NCBI GenBank assembly: GCA_965195345.1
Contig: OZ239628.1
Coordinates: 1,056,001-1,120,000 of the forward strand
Length of the DNA stretch: 64,000 nucleotides
Direction: 5' to 3'
Source of the DNA: an uncultured Thiomicrospira sp.
Lineage (GTDB): Bacteria > Pseudomonadota > Gammaproteobacteria > CAKMZV01
A program made the translations under genes and the position numbers. Below the pieces are notes generated by a model that did not search any database, was not told the DNA's origin, and was given only the letters and a program-made list of their open reading frames with translations. Positions 13,395-23,005 of the stretch are shown here, one piece after another (the stretch's first letter is position 1; each line of letters starts with the position of its first letter).

Positions 13395-13483
13395 TTTCTA
13401 AATTATATACTAAAATGCAAGTCTCTAAACGTTTACCGCGAGGAACTTTGAGTACCAATAAATTTTCTTTTCTGTTAATAAAA

Positions 13484-15547
13484 TTATGACTGCTTTTTGG
13501 GGATGGGCTGTTTGATCAATGCGTCAACAGCAACGACTCCATTTCCTTCTGATAGTACTAATAGAGGGTTAATGTCTAACTCAAATATAGGATGACAATC
13601 AACGTGTTCAGTGATTTTTGTGATTGCACACACCAGTGCTTCAATGTCGCCTTTAGGTCGATTTCTATAACCAGAAAGCATAGGAAAACACTGCAATGAC
13701 TCTATGGCTTTCTTAATATCCTCTTTATTAGTAGGAAGAAGAAGAGTGCGTGTATCTTGCAATAGCTCGACAAAAACCCCACCAAAACCAATGACCAGCA
13801 CCTGACCAAACAGTTGATCATGTTTAATGCCAACAATCATTTCTGCCACAGCCGATGTAATCATTTTTTCAAGCAAGAAAACATCACTTAATGCGGTCAT
13901 TTCTTCAACAGCTGTATTAAGTTGATTGGCGTTTAATATGTTTAGGCGAACTCCTCCATAATCACTTTTGTGCCCAATTTTATCAGAGTGTATTTTCAGT
14001 ACTACGGGATAGCCACTTTTCTCAGCAAAAAACACAGCATTTTTTGAGGTACATACGTATGAATTAGGCGTCGTTAAGCCAGCATCCTTAAGCCATTTTT
14101 TACTGTCAAATTCATTAAGTTGTACACTTCTAAGATCGTCTAAATAATGCTGTTTAATAAGAAAAGGCTTGTTGGAAACATGAGAGATTTTAGTGGCTAT
14201 ATTGACTGAGTGAGCAATGGCTTTAAGTCCGTCATTTAAGCCTTGTAAAGGGGTGATTCTTGCATGAATCAAACGATCACGAACTGTTTCTGGTAGTGAC
14301 TCAGGCAGCGTTGAAATAACAACGACTGAGGTATGACTTGACTCCTTTGCGGAAATTAAAGCGCGTTCGGTTACCTCCCAAGAAATGATTGAACGATCGT
14401 CAATGTTTGGGTAGTCAATAACTAAAGCTACGCAGTCATAGCCATCGTCAAGGACAGCCTTAAAACACTGTTTCTGTTTCTCAAAGTCCCCCCAAATATA
14501 AGTATGATAATCCAAAGGATTGCTTATGTGGACATTTTCACCAAGTATTTCAGAGAGTTTTCGCTGACTTTCATTTGAAGGAAAGGGCATAGATAAGCTT
14601 GACTCAGATACCGCGTCAGCAACTAAAGCAGCTTCGCCACCCGAGCAACTGAGTGACATAAACTTATTGCCTCGAATAGGGTGACTTAAAGCCAATAATT
14701 TAAGCGTCTCCATGAATTCGGTCAGTGAATCAATGCAGATAATTCCTATGCGTTCAAACATTGCCGTGTAAAGGCGGTGTTCACCAGCAAAAGAGCTGGT
14801 GTGACTAAGCGTGAGATTGCTACCTGATTCGGATTTTCCTGATTTAATAACAATTATTGGTATGTTTTTCTCAAAAGCGATATGGCAAGTCTGTATAAAG
14901 GCATTAACGTTAGTAATGGCTTCAATATATAACCCTATAGCAGTAACTCGTGCATCGTCTAACAATGTGATGATTAGATGGTGTGCGTCGATAACAGCAC
15001 GGTTTCCTATAGTAATTAGATGGCTAATAGGCGTGCTTCGATCGTTGAAGGACAATGATAGCGCAATATTTCCGCTTTGCATTATGACAGCAGCTCCTCT
15101 ATCAACGCGTTTCAAACCATGAAGATCTGGCCAAAGCGCTACGCCATCAAGATAGTTTAAAAAGCCATAACAATTGGGACCAATGGTCGCAAAATTAGAA
15201 GAGGCTGAGACGAGTCTATTTTGCATTGCTTGCCCGTGTGGGCTATGCTCAGCAAAGCCTGATGTATAGCACACTGCGCCGCCTGCTCCCATATCACTCA
15301 GTGCTTGAATATCATTTATTGCAGATTCGGGTGGAATGGCGATAAACGCAGCATCTGGGATGCTGGGTAGTTGAGTGACGCTTGAAAAGCATTTGATTCC
15401 TGCAAGAGAGTCTCTTTGAGGATTTACGGCCCATATTTTTCCAGAAAAACCTAATTTAAGGCACTGTTCTATAACCTTCTCTCCCTCCGTTCCTCCAATA
15501 ACTACAATGCTTCGAGGATTAAGAAGGCGCTTTAAATTTTCGATCAT
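13484..15547 (-). CDS. Acetate--CoA ligase family (NDP-forming acyl-CoA synthetase, fused CoA-binding and ATP-grasp domains)
   Basis: NPRSIVVIG, GPNCYG, QSGNIA, SHT phospho-His, SCSGGEA, NPLDYHT, HKSDYGGV, ELDINPL. Confidence 0.9.
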   Translation of the reverse strand: MIENLKRLLNPRSIVVIGGTEGEKVIEQCLKLGFSGKIWAVNPQRDSLAGIKCFSSVTQLPSIPDAAFIAIPPESAINDIQALSDMGAGGAVCYTSGFAEHSPHGQAMQNRLVSASSNFATIGPNCYGFLNYLDGVALWPDLHGLKRVDRGAAVIMQSGNIALSLSFNDRSTPISHLITIGNRAVIDAHHLIITLLDDARVTAIGLYIEAITNVNAFIQTCHIAFEKNIPIIVIKSGKSESGSNLTLSHTSSFAGEHRLYTAMFERIGIICIDSLTEFMETLKLLALSHPIRGNKFMSLSCSGGEAALVADAVSESSLSMPFPSNESQRKLSEILGENVHISNPLDYHTYIWGDFEKQKQCFKAVLDDGYDCVALVIDYPNIDDRSIISWEVTERALISAKESSHTSVVVISTLPESLPETVRDRLIHARITPLQGLNDGLKAIAHSVNIATKISHVSNKPFLIKQHYLDDLRSVQLNEFDSKKWLKDAGLTTPNSYVCTSKNAVFFAEKSGYPVVLKIHSDKIGHKSDYGGVRLNILNANQLNTAVEEMTALSDVFLLEKMITSAVAEMIVGIKHDQLFGQVLVIGFGGVFVELLQDTRTLLLPTNKEDIKKAIESLQCFPMLSGYRNRPKGDIEALVCAITKITEHVDCHPIFELDINPLLVLSEGNGVVAVDALIKQPIPKKQS

Positions 15548-15571
15548 TAAAGGGACAATTTTAAAGGAACG

Positions 15572-16366
15572 TTATCGTCCTTTCCAAACGGGAGGGCGCT
15601 TTTCTGCAAATGCACGTGATCCTTCTATCTGATCTTCACTGCTGTAGAGCTTTTTGACCGTTGCGTATTCTTCTTTTGCAATGCGGGTGATAACTTCGTC
15701 AAAATTTTTGTTCTCACTATCGCGTACCACTTCTTTAATAGCAGCATAAACTAATGGCGGACCTTCAGCCAATAAACGTGCCATTTTCCAGCTTTCTTGC
15801 ATTAAATTCTCAAATTTAACAATATGATTAACTAAGCCCCAGCGATGCGCTTCTTCTGCGTCTATCCATCGACCTGTTAGCAGCATTTCTATTGCTATGT
15901 GCCAAGGGATGCGTTTAGGTAATTTGATTGAAGCAGCATCGGCCAAAGTTCCTGAATTGATCTCGGGAAGGGCAAAGGTTGCAGTGTTTGAGGCAATTAT
16001 GATGTCAGCGCTGATAGCTATTTCTAATCCACCACCACAACATATGCCATTCACTGCTGCAATAATAGGCTTGTTTAAATTTGGCAATTCTTGCATCCCA
16101 CCAAAACCACCAATGCCATAATCGCCTTGCACTGGGTCTCCTGCTGCCGCTGCTTTTAAGTCCCATCCTGCGCAGAAAAATTTCTCACCAGAGCCCGTTA
16201 AAATTGCAACACGCAATTTAGGATCATCACGGAATGAGGCAAAAACCTCTCCCATTTTTCGACTAACAGCGTTGCTAATAGCATTTGCTTTCGGATTGTC
16301 TATAGTGACTTCAAGTATAGAGCCATCTACTCTGGTTTTAATAATATTATGCATAGCGTTTCTCAA
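15572..16366 (-). CDS. caiD: Carnitinyl-CoA dehydratase / crotonobetainyl-CoA hydratase-like crotonase
   Basis: PKANAI, FFCAGWDLKAAA, DYGIGGFGG, LNKPIIAAVNG, FAEKRPPVWKGR are characteristic of the CaiD subfamily. Confidence 0.8.
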   Translation of the reverse strand: MRNAMHNIIKTRVDGSILEVTIDNPKANAISNAVSRKMGEVFASFRDDPKLRVAILTGSGEKFFCAGWDLKAAAAGDPVQGDYGIGGFGGMQELPNLNKPIIAAVNGICCGGGLEIAISADIIIASNTATFALPEINSGTLADAASIKLPKRIPWHIAIEMLLTGRWIDAEEAHRWGLVNHIVKFENLMQESWKMARLLAEGPPLVYAAIKEVVRDSENKNFDEVITRIAKEEYATVKKLYSSEDQIEGSRAFAEKRPPVWKGR

Positions 16367-17544
16367 TTATTGGAATTTTTCTGACGTTCTTCAAAAGGTC
16401 TTAATAATTCGCGACTTATTATATGGCGTTGAATTTCAGAGGTGCCATCCCAAATACGTTCCACTCGTGCATCTCTCCAAAACCGTTCAAATGGCAAATC
16501 AGACATTAATCCCATGCCGCCATGAATTTGAATTGCTTCATCGGTTACTTTAGCTAACATTTCAGTAGCAAACAGTTTTGCACTTGAGATTTCACGGTTC
16601 GCATACTTTCCTTGATCTAATAGGGAAGCGGCACTGAGTGTTAGTAAGTCGGCAGCATCAATTTGAGTTATCATATCAGCCAACTTGAAAGAAACTCCTT
16701 GAAATTTTCCTATCGATTGCCCAAACTGTTTTCTCTCAATGCAATATGGTAGAGTTTCTTCTAAACAGCGTCTTGCTCGACCTACACAACTTGCAGCTAC
16801 AGATAGCCTTGTTGATTCAAGCCACTTATTTGCAATATCAAATCCCTTATGCACTTCCCCCAAAACTTGCGATTTGGGTAAGCGGCATTGTTCAAAGCGC
16901 AAAATGCTATTGTTGTAGCCTCTGTGTGATATTGATTGGTAACCGGGCAATATTTCGAAACCTTTGGTATTACGGTCAACTAAAAAGCAAGTAATGCGTT
17001 TTTTTAAGCCACGTGTACTCTCTTCTTCACCACTGGCGACAAATACAATCACAAAGTCTGCAATATCGGCATGGCTTATGAAATGTTTACTGCCATTGAT
17101 AATCCAGTCATCTCCACAAGCTTTCGCCGTACAACGCATACCACGCACATCGGACCCTGCATCTGGTTCAGTCATTGCGAGGGCATCAAATTTTTTTCCA
17201 GTAATCGCAGGATATAGGTATTTTTCGCGCTGCTCTTCATTACAAGCCATAAGGATGCCGGATGGGCGACCAAAAAAAATGCTTAACGCCATTGAAGTTC
17301 GACCTAATTCACGCTCAACCAAAGTAGATTCAAGGTGATTTAGTCCACCGCCTCCAATTTCTTCAGGCATGTTCGATGCAAAAAAGCCTAAATCACGGAC
17401 TTTTTTAACAAGAGTGGCTCCTAACTCTTTAGGGACAACCCCTGTACGCTCAATTTCCTTCTCGTGTGGAATCATTTCTTGTTCGCAGAATTTTCGTACA
17501 GTATCTACGATTAAAAATTGCTCTTCATTGAGGGTAAATTGCAT
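16363..17544 (-). CDS. Acyl-CoA dehydrogenase (candidate gamma-butyrobetainyl-CoA dehydrogenase)
   Basis: AMTEPDAGSD, INGSKHFIS, RKQFGQSI, QIHGGMG, RVERIWDGTSEIQR; overlaps the caiD start. Confidence 0.9.
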   Translation of the reverse strand: MQFTLNEEQFLIVDTVRKFCEQEMIPHEKEIERTGVVPKELGATLVKKVRDLGFFASNMPEEIGGGGLNHLESTLVERELGRTSMALSIFFGRPSGILMACNEEQREKYLYPAITGKKFDALAMTEPDAGSDVRGMRCTAKACGDDWIINGSKHFISHADIADFVIVFVASGEEESTRGLKKRITCFLVDRNTKGFEILPGYQSISHRGYNNSILRFEQCRLPKSQVLGEVHKGFDIANKWLESTRLSVAASCVGRARRCLEETLPYCIERKQFGQSIGKFQGVSFKLADMITQIDAADLLTLSAASLLDQGKYANREISSAKLFATEMLAKVTDEAIQIHGGMGLMSDLPFERFWRDARVERIWDGTSEIQRHIISRELLRPFEERQKNSNN

Positions 17545-17570
17545 GGTATTAAACAGTTAACGATCGATAA

Positions 17571-17894
17571 TTAATTTGAAGTGATGAGGTATAGAGTAAG
17601 TGAAGCAGTGAGAAAAATAGCAGCAATTAACCATACCGGTTGTTTTTGTTTTTTTGGATTTGAAATAGAGGCGTCTGTATCAGCACTGTTGTTGTCATAT
17701 TCGAGTAGCAACGGCAGAGCTTTTTGGTAGTTTTCCTCATCGACATAAACACGAGCAAAGTCCATGCTCGCTAATTCTCCAATTCCTCCTTGAAGGTATT
17801 GCCCGCTGACATGACAATTTATGCCGTCGGCTTCAAGCATACCCGAGACAATGTATGCTTCGGTTATATTATTTGCACGGTACACTTCTTTCAA
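17571..17894 (-). CDS. DUF2007-like putative signal-transducing protein with C-terminal membrane anchor
   Basis: VYRANNITEAYIVSGMLEADGI ... GQYLQGGIGEL, hydrophobic C-terminus; TTG start. Confidence 0.7.
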   Translation of the reverse strand: MKEVYRANNITEAYIVSGMLEADGINCHVSGQYLQGGIGELASMDFARVYVDEENYQKALPLLLEYDNNSADTDASISNPKKQKQPVWLIAAIFLTASLTLYLITSN

Positions 17895-17902
17895 AAGAAC
17901 TC

Positions 17903-19366
17903 CTAATAAATACGGTCTTTAATACCCATAAGTACGTATTGGCACTCTAAATACTCATCTAATCCGTATTTTGAACCTTCACGACCTAAACCTGACTGCT
18001 TCACTCCACCGAAAGGCGCGACTTCAGTCGATATGATTCCTTCATTTACTCCAACTATGCCACAATCAAGCGCTTCAGATACGAGGAATGCTCTAGTAAG
18101 GTTTTGAGTGCAGAAATAGGCAGCTAAGCCAAATTCAGTATTATTTGCTTTAGCGATGACTTCATCATCTGTTTTAAAAGTAATGATTGGCGCAACTGGT
18201 CCAAAGGTTTCTTCATTGTTAATTAATGCGTCAGCAGAAACATTTTTCAAAATAGTTGGTTCGAAGAATAACTTTCCATTGTGGTGTCGCTTACCACCAA
18301 CGATTATTTCAGCACCTTTAGCAACAGCATCGCTGATGTGCTCTTCTACTTTTTCTAAAGCGTTTTGGCTAATAAGTGGACCTTGAGTAGCGCCTTCCTC
18401 AAAACCATTTGAAGTATGGAGTTTTTTAACTTTCTGACTCAATTTTTGTGCGAAAACTTCTGCAACATCTTCATGAACGTAAAATCGGTTCGCACAAACG
18501 CATGTCTGCCCCGTATTACGAAACTTACAAATCATTGCAGCATCTACTGCTGTGTCTAAATTAGCGTCTGAAAAAACAATAAAAGGAGCATTTCCACCCA
18601 ACTCGAGGGATAGCTTTTTAAGTGTAGGGGCTGACTTCTCCATTAGGAGCTGTCCTACTTTAGTAGAGCCAGTAAAGGATATTTTTCGCACAATATCACT
18701 TTTTGTCATTACATTAGAGATAACCGAAGAGTCTCCACAAACAATATTTATTACTCCTTTAGGTATGCCTGCATCTTCAGCAAGTTTAACAATTGCTATC
18801 GCACTTAAAGGTGTTAAGCTTGAAGGTTTAATGACACAAGTACAGCCAGCAGCAAGTGCTGGAGCGATCTTGCGAGTGATCATTGCTACTGGGAAGTTCC
18901 AAGGCGTAATAATCCCAACAACGCCTATAGGTTTTTTATTGACTAAAATACGTGCATTTACATTATGCGTTGGAATTAAATCTCCATATGCACGAACACC
19001 TTCTTCTGCAAACCATCGTAAGAAGTTAGCAGCATAAGTAATTTCTCCTTTTGCTTCCGTTAAAGGCTTACCTTGTTCAGTGGTCATTATGGTTGCAAGA
19101 TCGTCTGCATTATCAAGTATTAATTGATACCAGCGCATTAAGAAATCTGACCTTGTGCGTGCCGTGTGTGAACGCCAAGTAGCAAAGGCAACGTTAGCGT
19201 CATTAATTGCTTTTTCGGTATCCGAAGCAGAGCAACTAGGTATGCTTGCAATGATGTCAAGCGTAGCAGGATTTGTAACTGTAAAAGTTTTTTCAGAACT
19301 AAGCCACTCACCGTTAATGTAACATTTGTTTGGTAAAAGTGAAGTATTTTGGATATTTGAGAGCAT
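17903..19366 (-). CDS. gabD: NAD(P)-dependent succinate-semialdehyde dehydrogenase family aldehyde dehydrogenase
   Basis: ITPWNFP, SFTGST, LELGGNAP, FRNTGQTCVCAN, EETFGP, APFGGVKQSGLGREGS. Confidence 0.88.
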   Translation of the reverse strand: MLSNIQNTSLLPNKCYINGEWLSSEKTFTVTNPATLDIIASIPSCSASDTEKAINDANVAFATWRSHTARTRSDFLMRWYQLILDNADDLATIMTTEQGKPLTEAKGEITYAANFLRWFAEEGVRAYGDLIPTHNVNARILVNKKPIGVVGIITPWNFPVAMITRKIAPALAAGCTCVIKPSSLTPLSAIAIVKLAEDAGIPKGVINIVCGDSSVISNVMTKSDIVRKISFTGSTKVGQLLMEKSAPTLKKLSLELGGNAPFIVFSDANLDTAVDAAMICKFRNTGQTCVCANRFYVHEDVAEVFAQKLSQKVKKLHTSNGFEEGATQGPLISQNALEKVEEHISDAVAKGAEIIVGGKRHHNGKLFFEPTILKNVSADALINNEETFGPVAPIITFKTDDEVIAKANNTEFGLAAYFCTQNLTRAFLVSEALDCGIVGVNEGIISTEVAPFGGVKQSGLGREGSKYGLDEYLECQYVLMGIKDRIY

Positions 19367-19375
19367 AATTTTCTT

Positions 19376-19879
19376 TTATTTATTGAGGGTTGGCGTATAG
19401 AAAGGGTTGCTGGGGTTTTTCATGGCCTCTTGTATTTCTTCTTCGGTTGGATCGCCTTTTAGGGCGCGTTGAATAGCTGTTTTCATGGCAATGTGATTGT
19501 TATGGTAGATTTCATCAGCATTGTTTGCTTCTGGGTTGACCCAAACTGCTGCAATAATACACCAGTCATTCGCAGCACACTCTGGTAGTGTTTTTTCATC
19601 GATGCACTCTTGCACTCCACGTGCCACTCCTGCTTGAGCGGGGCCCCAAGTCAAATTAGCGTGTTCATCGCTACGCATGTCAACTTTTGCAGCAAATAAG
19701 GTGGCTGGTTTGACGGGAACGTTCGGTTTATGGATAGCCATAAAAGGGATGTATCCCATGCGTGGAGCCGCTGCTGATGCAGTAAGTCCCGTTCCAACAG
19801 GTCCATTCTTATCACCAATAAATGCATTGATGTGTGCTGCATTAGCACCACTTCCGATGAAAGCCTCTCCTATATACAT
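19376..19879 (-). CDS. Formaldehyde-activating enzyme (Fae)-like protein
   Basis: GEAFIG..AAHI, PNVPVKPATLF, GPAQAGVARGV, AIQRAL fit the Fae fold; it diverges from canonical Fae (AHIN vs AHID, VWVNP vs VFIHW). Confidence 0.85.
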   Translation of the reverse strand: MYIGEAFIGSGANAAHINAFIGDKNGPVGTGLTASAAAPRMGYIPFMAIHKPNVPVKPATLFAAKVDMRSDEHANLTWGPAQAGVARGVQECIDEKTLPECAANDWCIIAAVWVNPEANNADEIYHNNHIAMKTAIQRALKGDPTEEEIQEAMKNPSNPFYTPTLNK

Positions 19880-19892
19880 ATTTTCCTCTTAG

Positions 19893-21008
19893 TTATATTG
19901 TATTATGCGGTTCAACAACCATACGTAATGCTTTATTTGTTCGAACCTTAGTAATTGCCTCATTTATTTTATTTAACGGAACGACGTCAGTGACTAGTTC
20001 GTCAAGTAATAACTTTCCTTGTTGATAAAGATTGGCAATCATTGCAAAGTCTCTTTGAGGGTTTGCGCTGCCATAAAAACTGCCAGTGATGATTTTTTCC
20101 TCACGTGGTATTTTTAAAGCAGGTAATTTTACTTCAGCACCATCTGGAGCTATTCCAATGTAAACGATAGTCCCTGCACGTGCGGTTATATCGTAAGCCT
20201 GTCGCTGAAGATCAGTATTTCCTATGGCTTCAAATACGTAATCAGCACCATGATTATTGGTAAGTTCTTTAATGGCATCAACAACATCCTCTTTTTTGGG
20301 GTTGATGAAATGTGTTGCACCAAATAGCATAGCATGATCTTTTTTCTCTTCAACCGCATCGATACCAATAATCATTTCAGCTCCAGATAATCGAGCACCT
20401 TGAGCTATGTTTAGACCCACGCCTCCCATACCATAAATAACAACGCTACTACCCGGTCGTACCTTAGCAGTGTTTACGACTGCTCCTATACCAGTCATAA
20501 CAGCACAACCAATAAGAGAAGCGGGCACAAAAGGTATGTCTTCATTTAACTTTACACAGCTTGCGCCAGGTACAACGGTGTATTCAGCCCAAGTTGATGT
20601 GAAAGAATAGTGATAGATCGTTTGATTATCTTTTGACAAGCGAGAGGTGCCATCAAGCAAAGTGCCATCAAGCACGATAGGTGCTGACGCATCGCATAAA
20701 TGGGGTTTTCCAGTGTAACAAAAACGGCATTTTCCACATTCTGGTGCCCACGAAAGGGCAACATGATCTCCTGGTTTTACGTGTTTAATATTTTTGCCTG
20801 TTTCAATGACTATGCCAGCCCCTTCATGACCCAATACAGCGGGTAGAGGAACGGACATGGAACCAGTAATGACGTGAATGTCACTATAACAAACTCCCGT
20901 GGCTTCAATTTTGACTAATACCTCATCATCTTTGTGTTGCGCTAATTGAATTTTTTCAATAACTTGAGGTTTTTCAATCTCATAACAAACAGCTGCTCGT
21001 ATTTCCAT
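19893..21008 (-). CDS. Zn-dependent alcohol dehydrogenase (class III-like MDR)
   Basis: GVCYSD, LGHEGAG, CGKCRFC...C structural Zn site, IGCAVMTG, GMGGVG. Confidence 0.92.
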   Translation of the reverse strand: MEIRAAVCYEIEKPQVIEKIQLAQHKDDEVLVKIEATGVCYSDIHVITGSMSVPLPAVLGHEGAGIVIETGKNIKHVKPGDHVALSWAPECGKCRFCYTGKPHLCDASAPIVLDGTLLDGTSRLSKDNQTIYHYSFTSTWAEYTVVPGASCVKLNEDIPFVPASLIGCAVMTGIGAVVNTAKVRPGSSVVIYGMGGVGLNIAQGARLSGAEMIIGIDAVEEKKDHAMLFGATHFINPKKEDVVDAIKELTNNHGADYVFEAIGNTDLQRQAYDITARAGTIVYIGIAPDGAEVKLPALKIPREEKIITGSFYGSANPQRDFAMIANLYQQGKLLLDELVTDVVPLNKINEAITKVRTNKALRMVVEPHNTI

Positions 21009-21043
21009 GGTGTTTTATGATTATATTTTTATACGAATAAATT

Positions 21044-22429
21044 TTATGAGTAGGGTAAAACGCATTTTAAACGCTTTATAGTTTCTTCTTGACCCAGTAT
21101 TTCAGCAATCTCACCGATAGAGGGAGTATTGGTCATGCCTGTTAAAGCAAAGCGTAATGGCATTCCAATGCTTCCAACTTTCATCCCATGATTTTTTGCA
21201 GTGGTTTTGATACTTTCAAAAATGACATTGTGTTTCCAATTCGATATTTTTTCCAATTCGACTAATAAATCCTTTAAAACGATTGCGATTTCTTCTTGGC
21301 AATGAGATTGCCAAGCTTGTGAATCAATAGTAGGGGCATGGATAAAGTAATTGCAATCATTTGCCATCGATAATAAAGTATTATGTCTGGGTTGTTGCAA
21401 GGCAATCATTGGAAGCATAGACTCGTCTATAGGATGGCGCATTAAATGGCTTAATGCAGGCAATAAGGATGCAGGGTCTGCGGATTGAATGTAATGTTGG
21501 TTTAACCATTGTAATTTTCCCAAATCAAATTGCCCAGATGCTTTATTTAGGCCTTCAATAGAAAAGGTTGCTATCATTTCTTCTAAACTGAAAATTTCTT
21601 GATCGCCGTGTGACCAGCCTAAGCGCACTAAGTAGTTCAGTAAAGCTTGAGGCAGATATCCTTGGTCGCAATATTCGGTTACGCTTGTTGCGCCGTGCCT
21701 TTTAGACAAACGGGATCCGTCTTCACCCAAAACCATTGGCACATGAATCATTGTTGGGTGCATGGCGTCTAAGGCTTTGTATATATGCAACTGGCGGGGC
21801 GTGTTGTTTATATGGTCATCCCCGCGAATAATGTGGGTTATTTGCATATCGATATCATCGACCACAACGCAGAGATTATAAGTTGGTGAACCATCACTGC
21901 GTGCTATGACAAGGTCATCAAGTTCGTTGTTTTCTGTACGTATAGTACCGTACACTCCGTCTTCATAAGTAATGAATCCTTCTTTAGGTGTTTTAAAACG
22001 AACTACTGGTTTTATATCTTCTGGATGTGGCATGTCACTGTCTCGCCAGCGACCGTCGTAGCGCATTTTCTCACCCCGTTTCTTTTGCTCCTCGCGCATT
22101 ACCTCGAGCTCTTCAGGAGTGGTATAGCAGTAGTAAGCATTGCCACTGGCAAGAAGTTCAGAAATAACTTCTTTATAGCGTTGAGTACGTTCGCTCTGAT
22201 AAAAAGGACCCTCATCATAGTTTAGACCTAACCATGCAAGTCCTTCAAGAATTACTTTTGTGGCTTCGTCGGTTGAGCGCTGTGTATCTGAGTCCTCAAT
22301 ACGCAGTACAAACTCACCTCCATGATGTCTGGCAAAAAGCCAGTTAAAAAGAGCAGTGCGTGCGCCACCAATGTGTAAAGAACCCGTGGGGCTTGGAGGA
22401 AAACGAGTACGAATTTTATTAGTACTCAT
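21044..22429 (-). CDS. gltX: Glutamate--tRNA ligase
   Basis: RFPPSPTGSLHIGG, LRIEDSD, IIRGDDH, LSKRHGA; ATG at 22429. Confidence 0.96.
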   Translation of the reverse strand: MSTNKIRTRFPPSPTGSLHIGGARTALFNWLFARHHGGEFVLRIEDSDTQRSTDEATKVILEGLAWLGLNYDEGPFYQSERTQRYKEVISELLASGNAYYCYTTPEELEVMREEQKKRGEKMRYDGRWRDSDMPHPEDIKPVVRFKTPKEGFITYEDGVYGTIRTENNELDDLVIARSDGSPTYNLCVVVDDIDMQITHIIRGDDHINNTPRQLHIYKALDAMHPTMIHVPMVLGEDGSRLSKRHGATSVTEYCDQGYLPQALLNYLVRLGWSHGDQEIFSLEEMIATFSIEGLNKASGQFDLGKLQWLNQHYIQSADPASLLPALSHLMRHPIDESMLPMIALQQPRHNTLLSMANDCNYFIHAPTIDSQAWQSHCQEEIAIVLKDLLVELEKISNWKHNVIFESIKTTAKNHGMKVGSIGMPLRFALTGMTNTPSIGEIAEILGQEETIKRLKCVLPYS

Positions 22430-22438
22430 TTTCAATTA

Positions 22439-22912
22439 TTAATATTTAGCGGAAATGATTTCATACTCTACTTCACCGTCGGGCGTGTGCACAGTAACCA
22501 CTTCACCAATTGATTTCCCTACCAGTGAACGAGCCAAAGGAGAGGTGATTGAAATTTTATTGAACTCTAAATTTGCTTCGTATTCACCAACAATTTGATA
22601 ATGAATGACTTGTTCGTCGCTTAATCGAAATAATTCAATTTTAGCGCCAAAGACCACTTTGTCACCTGGGTTGAGGGAAGCAATATCTATAACCTGCACA
22701 GAAGCAGCAGTGCCTTCAAGCTCTTTGATACGTCCCTCTATGAATCCTTGTTGTTCACGTGCTGCATGGTATTCTGCGTTTTCTTTTAGGTCTCCATGTG
22801 CACGGGCTTCTACAATTGCCTCTATAATAGCGGGGCGTTGGTTTTTTTTTAAATCTTCGATCTCATCGCGCAGGGCGTTCATTCCTTCTTGCGTAATTGG
22901 GATGGTATTCAT
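22439..22912 (-). CDS. greA: Transcription elongation factor GreA
   Basis: [38 protein letters not shown]; ATG at 22912. Confidence 0.96.
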
Positions 22913-22969
22913 TGCGTTATTCTTACTGGCTTTGTTAATCAAAGGGCATTATATCGCTTTGCGTTACTG

Positions 22970-22999
22970 TTGAAGCAGTCATTCTTAACGTTTTATAAT
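22970..22999 (+). promoter_or_regulatory. Sigma70-type promoter of the ABC transporter genes (likely leaderless transcript)
   Basis: TTGAAG (22970-22975), 18 nt, TATAAT (22994-22999), then 6 nt to the ATG at 23006. Confidence 0.55.
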
Positions 23000-23005
23000 A
23001 GAGTT

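Follow-up and report, generated by a model that had tools for sequence, protein, structure and literature searches.

Two catabolic modules placed end to end in an uncultured Thiomicrospira genome, one of them a Fae-fold module with a proposed role in homoserine betaine degradation

We analyzed a run of seven genes in a 64,000-nucleotide stretch of DNA (here called the window) from an uncultured Thiomicrospira sp. (contig OZ239628.1, positions 1,056,001 to 1,120,000). The run encodes a Zn-dependent alcohol dehydrogenase (ADH), a divergent protein of the Fae fold, an aldehyde dehydrogenase (ALDH) of the succinate-semialdehyde dehydrogenase (SSADH) type, a small DUF2007 protein, an acyl-CoA dehydrogenase (ACAD), a CaiD-type hydratase, and an ADP-forming CoA ligase. 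The seven genes are two independent catabolic modules that abut in a streamlined genome with a shuffled gene order, and not one pathway. The ADH, Fae-like, and SSADH genes (module A) form a widespread undescribed module. The ACAD, CaiD, and ligase genes (module B) are assigned by orthology to the rhizobial bco set, whose known chemistry would lead from γ-butyrobetaine to carnitine. For module A we propose, with the probabilities about evenly balanced, degradation of homoserine betaine (N,N,N-trimethylhomoserine) with release of trimethylamine.

Independence of the two halves

The original prediction had favored a single pathway starting from 4-trimethylaminobutanol and had named, as its fallback, two modules joined by genome shuffling. 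Our set of Fae-subfamily loci has 87 members: 5 came from genomes (found by scanning genome contigs with the single Fae-like protein) and 2 from congeners, and 80 were the best of 538 confirmed matches in metagenomes. Relatives of the ADH and the ALDH were present in 25 and 28 of these loci, respectively. Relatives of the ligase, CaiD, ACAD, and DUF2007 protein were found in none of the 87, nor in any of the 38 that are at least 8 kb long. Likewise, the two halves were adjacent in none of 29 bcoC loci, which were drawn from 34 ACAD-positive genomes and inspected with 1.5-kb flanks. A CaiB-type CoA transferase occurred in 2 of 90 Fae loci (the 87 and a further three from annotated plasmids), once on the opposite strand, and does not represent the bco set.

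Both congeners carry ADH and Fae genes side by side at another genomic site, without the bco set, and orthologs of ACAD, CaiD, carnitine dehydrogenase, and BKACE were absent from the four family relatives. Among 400 sampled genomes, 4 encoded the Fae subfamily and 34 the ACAD; a single genome encoded both, on different contigs (P = 0.30). Linkage of the halves was not found from the Fae side, from the bcoC side, or at the genome level, and their adjacency was seen in the window genome alone. These results match the fallback, whereas the single pathway is contradicted by the neighborhoods and by the SSADH type of the ALDH.

The Fae-fold subfamily and its partner enzymes

The Fae-like protein exceeded the TIGR03126 cut-off (154.6 against 118.05 bits), and its predicted structure (pLDDT 94.5) matched Fae of Methylorubrum extorquens (PDB 1Y60) with a TM score of 0.91 at 34% identity. 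A fold search with the model recovered no close structure besides Fae, and nothing but Fae clusters came from the ESM Atlas and a representative library. In the 94 sequences of the subfamily, H16, K65, and Q82 were fixed, as were N18, H73, and N158, and W78 and W113 were conserved at 99%. Nine distant Fae homologs, which are not verified tetrahydromethanopterin (H4MPT) enzymes and one of which comes from genome G043, mostly have D, Q, F, F, and H in place of N18, H73, W78, W113, and N158. An alignment with 1Y5Y gave the same residue differences without the G043 sequence.

In canonical Fae, we take His22 (H16 here) to be catalytic and Asp24 and Thr73 to bind H4MPT. N18 occupies the place of Asp24 and an Asn that of His164, and position 67, the equivalent of Thr73, is variable in the subfamily. 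Compared with M. extorquens Fae (1Y5Y/1Y60; EC 4.2.1.147), the window protein has the same fold and keeps the His, Lys, and Gln, but it differs by the change of Asp to Asn, the change of His164 to Asn, the new His73, and two new Trp residues, and it lies in a catabolic dehydrogenase context in place of an H4MPT cluster. Mch, the only enzyme of the H4MPT pathway that was searched for, was found neither in the window genome (99.7% complete) nor in its family; it was present in 1 of 12 genomes carrying the subfamily (1 of the 9 carriers outside this family). Judged from sequence, this protein falls outside canonical Fae, and a catalytic role and a site for a cation are suggested by the fixed Trp/Phe residues together with the second His.

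In the 90 Fae loci, an alcohol dehydrogenase of one of four families was detected in 60: Zn-ADH in 25, aldo-keto reductase (AKR) in 20, β-HAD in 17, and Fe-ADH in 6. Neither Zn-ADH and AKR nor AKR and β-HAD ever occurred together, and the partners switched repeatedly along a quick tree of Fae. Such mutually exclusive partners point to one alcohol-to-aldehyde oxidation before the Fae step. A HalD-family 2-oxoglutarate (2OG)/Fe(II) enzyme with an HxD motif was found in 11 loci, none of which had a dehydrogenase of the four families; it pairs with the Fae-like gene at L017:9103-9978 and in 10 other loci and had no sequence match in the PDB. An ALDH was present in 30 of the 90 loci, an MR-type enolase with only distant solved relatives in 40, and an ergothionase-like lyase in 4. 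Betaine-type transport was represented by OsmX-type binding proteins (15 loci), ProX (4), and BCCT carriers (2). HAL-like proteins without the ASG triad, nearest to ergothionase, stand by Fae-like genes at L034:8489-9973 and in L019, L079, and L083, and one metagenome contig carries two Fae-like matches ~590 bp apart (L024:1391 onwards).

The window ALDH scored above the SSADH cut-off (TIGR01780, 685 against 646) and below the BADH and ABALDH cut-offs applied to test for a betaine- or trimethylaminobutyraldehyde dehydrogenase (TIGR01804, 422 against 669; TIGR03374, 320 against 909), a type expected to have no arginine pair. It keeps Arg165, Arg283, and Ser446, as do 19 Fae-linked ALDHs, a count that adds five further Fae loci. 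We assume this triad to be the carboxylate-binding site of SSADH, and its retention argues for a site suited to a 4-oxo acid and against one for a trimethylammonium aldehyde. The window ALDH is the only close SSADH of the genome and is probably also the general SSADH of the cell.

The window ADH fell below the class III cut-off (TIGR02818, 320 against 544) and was 39% identical to the class III ADH of the same genome. Its best match among 1903 plasmid matches was the ADH of a Priestia cluster containing a lyase and ether-cleavage genes, followed by the ADH of an IclR–Fae–SSADH–ADH–BCCT cluster in Bacillus F19. These two ADHs are 65% alike and are sisters in the tree, and the IclR proteins of the two clusters are 55% alike. 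A sister-clade Fae-type protein of Bacillus is encoded at L184:6335-6895, in an SSADH–ADH–BCCT cluster.

A set composed of a short-chain dehydrogenase (SDR), an FGGY kinase, and an FAD enzyme resembling alkyl-dihydroxyacetone phosphate (DHAP) synthase was found in 7 of the 90 Fae loci, in several clades. The nearest solved relatives of the FAD enzyme are alkyl-DHAP synthases, and the set could phosphorylate, oxidize, and cleave a glyceryl ether. In Streptomyces clavuligerus, it lies 294 kb from the Fae module on the same plasmid. A plasmid search with the ether enzyme gave 30 records, from which we examined S. clavuligerus and five organisms in which no adjacent Fae gene had been seen before. 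The ether set of Priestia megaterium and Vibrio pelagius stands beside an ALDH and a lyase, together with a Zn-ADH or an AKR and a carrier of the MFS or BCCT type; the AKR and BCCT of Vibrio are 50% and 48% like, respectively, their counterparts in Fae loci. In Enterococcus gilvus, the set is found with an osmoprotectant ABC transporter and glpP. Escherichia coli matches the set at 60%, presumably with its ygc genes. In L015:12290-16059, L115:2109-6003, L171, L172, and L177, the set is repeatedly accompanied by glpP and by transporters of the BCCT or osmoprotectant ABC type.

The lyase of the Priestia and Vibrio clusters is aspartase-like. Its family (n = 121) keeps the GSSxxPGKxNP catalytic loop but has changed Thr to Ile or Val in 121 of 121 members, Asn to Ser or Ala in 107 (14 keep Asn), and His or Gln to Cys in all 121. 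These three positions presumably bind the amino group in aspartase, and the lyases are candidate trimethylaspartate trimethylamine-lyases. No such lyase was found in the 94 Fae-subfamily loci or in the Bacillus F19 locus. The Priestia ALDH is nearest to betaine-aldehyde dehydrogenase, and the SSADH triad was present in none of three lyase-route ALDHs, in contrast to the 19 Fae-linked enzymes. The two ALDH types fit the two step orders that our model predicts, with oxidation before elimination in one route and after it in the other. Lyases of this family, with the altered amino-binding positions, lie by betaine-aldehyde-type ALDHs at L174:14258-15598, L182:2116-3495, L183:9307-10647, and L180:9998-12556, and in Peribacillus the lyase and a BCCT transporter share one annotated frame.

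Proposed pathway of module A and its alternatives

Homoserine betaine is a common compound of algae and cyanobacteria. It is also the head group of diacylglyceryl-N,N,N-trimethylhomoserine (DGTS), a phosphorus-free lipid of algae, fungi, and bacteria that is a glyceryl ether of this betaine. A glyceryl ether, betaine transporters, and an aspartase with an enlarged amino pocket acting after two oxidations together point to homoserine betaine, and the whole of the module A pathway, its substrate included, is inferred as follows. The ADH, a predicted homoserine-betaine 4-dehydrogenase, would turn the alcohol at C4 into an aldehyde. The product, aspartate-semialdehyde betaine, would be the substrate of the Fae-fold protein, which would remove the acidic C3 proton and eliminate trimethylamine from C2 to yield (E)-4-oxobut-2-enoate (fumarate semialdehyde), which the SSADH-type enzyme would convert to fumarate. 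Tmm (82361-83701) and Tdm (97545-99842, both in genome coordinates), which scored over their cut-offs, could consume the released trimethylamine. In the parallel route predicted for Priestia and Vibrio, the alcohol would be oxidized to the aldehyde and on to trimethylaspartate, which would be split into fumarate and trimethylamine. We hold with slightly less than even confidence that the Fae-fold subfamily is a trimethylamine lyase central to the catabolism of homoserine betaine and the DGTS head group, with ether cleavage by the alkyl-DHAP-synthase-like enzyme and a parallel aspartase-like route.

The proposed chemistry, β-elimination of trimethylamine from an α-trimethylammonio acid, would be shared with ergothionase (PDB 6S7J) and the aspartase type. 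However, the window protein has the Fae fold and not that of HAL or fumarase/aspartase, and the likeness would lie in the reaction only. The Fae-fold protein would act on an aldehyde, whereas the parallel aspartase-like enzyme would act on trimethylaspartate. Carnitine monooxygenase CntA/B releases trimethylamine by a Rieske oxygenase with O2, whereas module A would use NAD(P)+-dependent oxidation followed by elimination. An account of the CntA/B route (PMC11353897) describes the conversion of a C4 semialdehyde to a dicarboxylate, as proposed for module A.

A literature search, whose coverage excluded subscription journals and supplements that may contain one, returned no account of module A or of homoserine-betaine catabolism, and neither trimethylamine elimination from an aldehyde by a Fae-fold protein nor an aspartase-like trimethylaspartate lyase was found. 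Module B is known; that module A is an undescribed pathway acting on the substrate proposed here is a view we hold about as firmly as we doubt it. According to a 2021 preprint (10.1101/2021.03.10.434842), trimethylated homoserine is the main osmolyte of Trichodesmium and a likely source of trimethylamine, and its metabolic fate "remains unknown." Homoserine betaine is reported at nanomolar levels on reefs in another study (PMC11166142), and a 2026 study gives diel trends of the compound and places microbial uptake outside its tests (PMC13403184). If the proposal is true, the Fae fold would have a second reaction, the ygc-type ether genes, those of E. coli included, would have a proposed function, and trimethylamine would have a further, newly recognized source in the sea and in soil. 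On this model, the annotation "fae" in metagenomes is an unsafe marker of methylotrophy. The model names S. clavuligerus, P. megaterium, Bacillus sp. F19, V. pelagius, and Caballeronia as cultured carriers.

Several points weigh against the homoserine betaine reading. Many loci are short, so that the neighborhood counts are lower bounds, and related Fae loci are not independent of one another. The MR-type enolase (40 of 90 loci), the second Zn-ADHs, and the 2OG variant have no unique explanation. The ether sets of Ilyobacter and Bacillus thuringiensis have neither Fae nor lyase nearby, and at the genome level the ether enzyme overlapped with Fae in 1 of 2 genomes. The Bacillus F19 Fae is of a sister type with 25% identity, which keeps N18, W113, and N158 and lacks H73. 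Orthology support for the ADH is moderate: the split between the ingroup and the class III/NDMA ADHs has an SH-aLRT of only 87 and carries a long-branch warning, and identity of the window ADH is 47% to the Priestia enzyme versus 44% to a class III enzyme. The congeners encode SSADH elsewhere, among housekeeping genes, and the position of the SSADH gene in the window may be due to chance. No ether-cleavage set was found in the window genome, which would therefore use free homoserine betaine; a close relative of the module's enolase was not found there either, and no transporter or regulator adjoins module A in the window.

It is possible, although we consider it unlikely, that module A has another substrate, such as the hydroxymethyl-β-alanine betaine head group of the lipid DGTA or another C4 onium alcohol, or that the Fae-like protein has another task, such as lactol opening, dehydration of an aldehyde hydrate, or hydration of an enal to malic semialdehyde, with the elimination being spontaneous. 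The β-HAD partners (17 of 90 loci) resemble 3-hydroxyisobutyrate dehydrogenase, the enolase could itself eliminate the amine, DGTA is likewise a glyceryl ether, and canonical Fae presumably works at a carbonyl hydration or condensation step. However, an aspartase-like lyase requires its substrate to have a succinyl skeleton, which is available from homoserine betaine but not from the DGTA head group, and the SSADH triad suits a C4 4-oxo acid. The conserved aromatic residues and second His of the subfamily, which suggest a cation site and catalysis, and the way in which Fae plus SSADH takes the place of ALDH plus lyase also argue for trimethylamine elimination from the homoserine betaine aldehyde.

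A role in formaldehyde metabolism, in which the Fae-like protein would join formaldehyde to tetrahydrofolate or to a thiol for oxidation of the condensation adduct by the ADH, in the manner of Gfa–FrmA, is improbable. The Fae fold, the TIGR03126 score, and the retained H16, K65, and Q82 are consistent with it, as are a trimethylamine N-oxide demethylase and, as read from the genome, folate one-carbon genes. However, the Asp that we take to bind the pterin is Asn in all aligned subfamily rows, a separate pair of class III ADH and formylglutathione hydrolase was read from the same genome, and the AKR, β-HAD, Fe-ADH, SSADH, betaine transporters, and ether-cleavage genes do not fit this role. In a study of M. 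universalis (PMC5023235), the distant Fae3, which may lie outside the subfamily, was induced on methylamine, but deletion of fae3 caused no growth defect. Finally, the original prediction's single route from 4-trimethylaminobutanol via the aldehyde and butyrobetaine to carnitinyl-CoA is very improbable, since the co-directional adjacency here and the possible benefit of shared expression for two halves that both act on C4 trimethylammonium compounds are outweighed by the unjoined halves in all 87 Fae and 29 bcoC loci, by congeners that have ADH–Fae but lack bco and carnitine genes, by two arginines at the ALDH substrate site, and by a route that requires no Fae-like step.

Module B and the layout of the locus

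The assignment of the CoA half to the bco route, made in the original prediction, was supported by comparison with Sinorhizobium meliloti, whose bco/cdh pathway of butyrobetaine and carnitine was reportedly described by Bazire et al. in 2019. The ACAD, CaiD, and ligase were 74%, 71%, and 42% identical to the S. meliloti genes, the last over a 480-aa stop-free piece of the ligase, and the S. meliloti ACAD gene adjoins those for BKACE, carnitine 3-dehydrogenase, and CaiD. The ACAD and the hydratase presumably correspond to BcoC and BcoD. Module B would convert γ-butyrobetaine to its CoA ester, which the BcoC-type ACAD would oxidize to crotonobetainyl-CoA, and hydration would give carnitinyl-CoA. 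A search of the rest of the genome for carnitine dehydrogenase and a 3-dehydrocarnitine cleavage enzyme, which had been recommended, located both at two other sites: carnitine 3-dehydrogenase at 688623-690086 (NF005716, 656 against 592) and BKACE at about 1357290-1358216, with 46% and 73% identity to the S. meliloti counterparts, respectively. These enzymes could complete a route to glycine betaine. The genome thus has orthologs of all five S. meliloti enzymes, split over three sites instead of forming a single cluster.

A ligase relative directly followed the ACAD in 29 of 29 bcoC loci, whereas the order in the window is ACAD–CaiD–ligase. Carnitine dehydrogenase was present in 15 of the 29 loci and a GlxA regulator upstream in 10; with the S. 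meliloti GlxA-type regulator as query, no match was found in the window genome at E ≤ 1e-10. S. meliloti BcoAB forms butyrobetainyl-CoA with the use of ATP and CoA (10.1101/2021.01.25.428109), and SMc01638 both oxidizes carnitine and turns betainyl-CoA into glycine betaine (PMC12482172). A second pair of CaiD-like and ADP-forming ligase genes lies at L104:8214-11110 (genome positions 1536213-1539109) and at L168:8015-12441. The CaiD-like gene of this pair is common to genomes G001-G003, and in G003 the SSADH gene directly follows the pair.

Table 1. Features of the seven-gene run, in window coordinates
Feature	Position	Strand	Remarks
Zn-dependent ADH, not class III	19893..21008	-	PF08240/PF00107; module A
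Divergent Fae-fold protein	19376..19879	-	PF08714 and TIGR03126 above cut-off; module A
SSADH/GabD-family ALDH	17903..19366	-	Aldedh; TIGR01780 685>646; module A
DUF2007 small protein, at junction of halves	17571..17894	-	PF09413
ACAD, BcoC-type	16363..17544	-	74% to S. meliloti ACAD; module B
CaiD/BcoD-type crotonobetainyl-CoA hydratase	15572..16354	-	ECH_1; best NCBIfam match PRK03580, under cut-off; module B
ADP-forming CoA ligase, BcoAB-type	13484..15547	-	CoA-binding, Succ_CoA_lig, and ATP-grasp_5; module B
TATAAT hexamer	21020-21025	-	11 nt before ADH ATG; weak promoter candidate

The seven reading frames, their families, and their common strand were confirmed as originally described, as were the gaps of at most 26 bp (13, 9, 8, 26, 8, and 24 bp, with CaiD counted from the ATG at 16354) and the TATAAT box upstream of the ADH gene (Table 1). 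It was also correct that no transporter or regulator is adjacent and that carnitine dehydrogenase is not at the locus. Tight spacing and the TATAAT box were rejected as proof of one operon, since both are at the level of the genomic background. The genome, a single contig of 1.92 Mb, has 1232 gaps between co-directional genes, with a median of 13 bp; 58% of them measure at most 26 bp, and 16 runs of at least seven genes show equally tight packing. Of its 1585 open reading frames, 69 have a TATAAT in the 40 nt before their start. The promoter scan found no -35 element paired with the hexamer, and it returned 30 sites versus 26.3 ± 4.2 in shuffled sequences. On the same strand, gltX ends 35 bp upstream of the ADH gene, and no terminator-like site was found between them in the scan. 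Beyond the ligase, moaA begins after 89 bp; a promoter-like site matching 10 of 12 positions lies between the two at 13402-13429, and the sequence suggests that moaA-moaD-moeA have their own transcription start.

One contig of run X1, which may be the source sample itself, covers 14894-23000 without any difference, so that the halves were not wrongly joined at this point of the assembly. A minor variant in the same run, with 11 substitutions within the ligase gene (14441-14893), is probably a second strain. The GC content at third codon positions of the seven genes lies within 1.6 standard deviations of the genome mean and gives no sign of recent transfer; the closest relatives of the ACAD come from a different class within the phylum, which accounts for 31 of the 34 genomes. 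The DUF2007 protein at the junction, found in none of the 87 Fae or 29 bcoC loci, is probably a passenger, and the DUF2007 genes of relatives match the other copy in the genome (at 1382461). Genes for catabolism are spread over many sites of this genome: those for carnitine dehydrogenase, BKACE, and Tmm are each isolated amid unrelated genes, and the Tdm gene is the first of a methylamine cluster located elsewhere.

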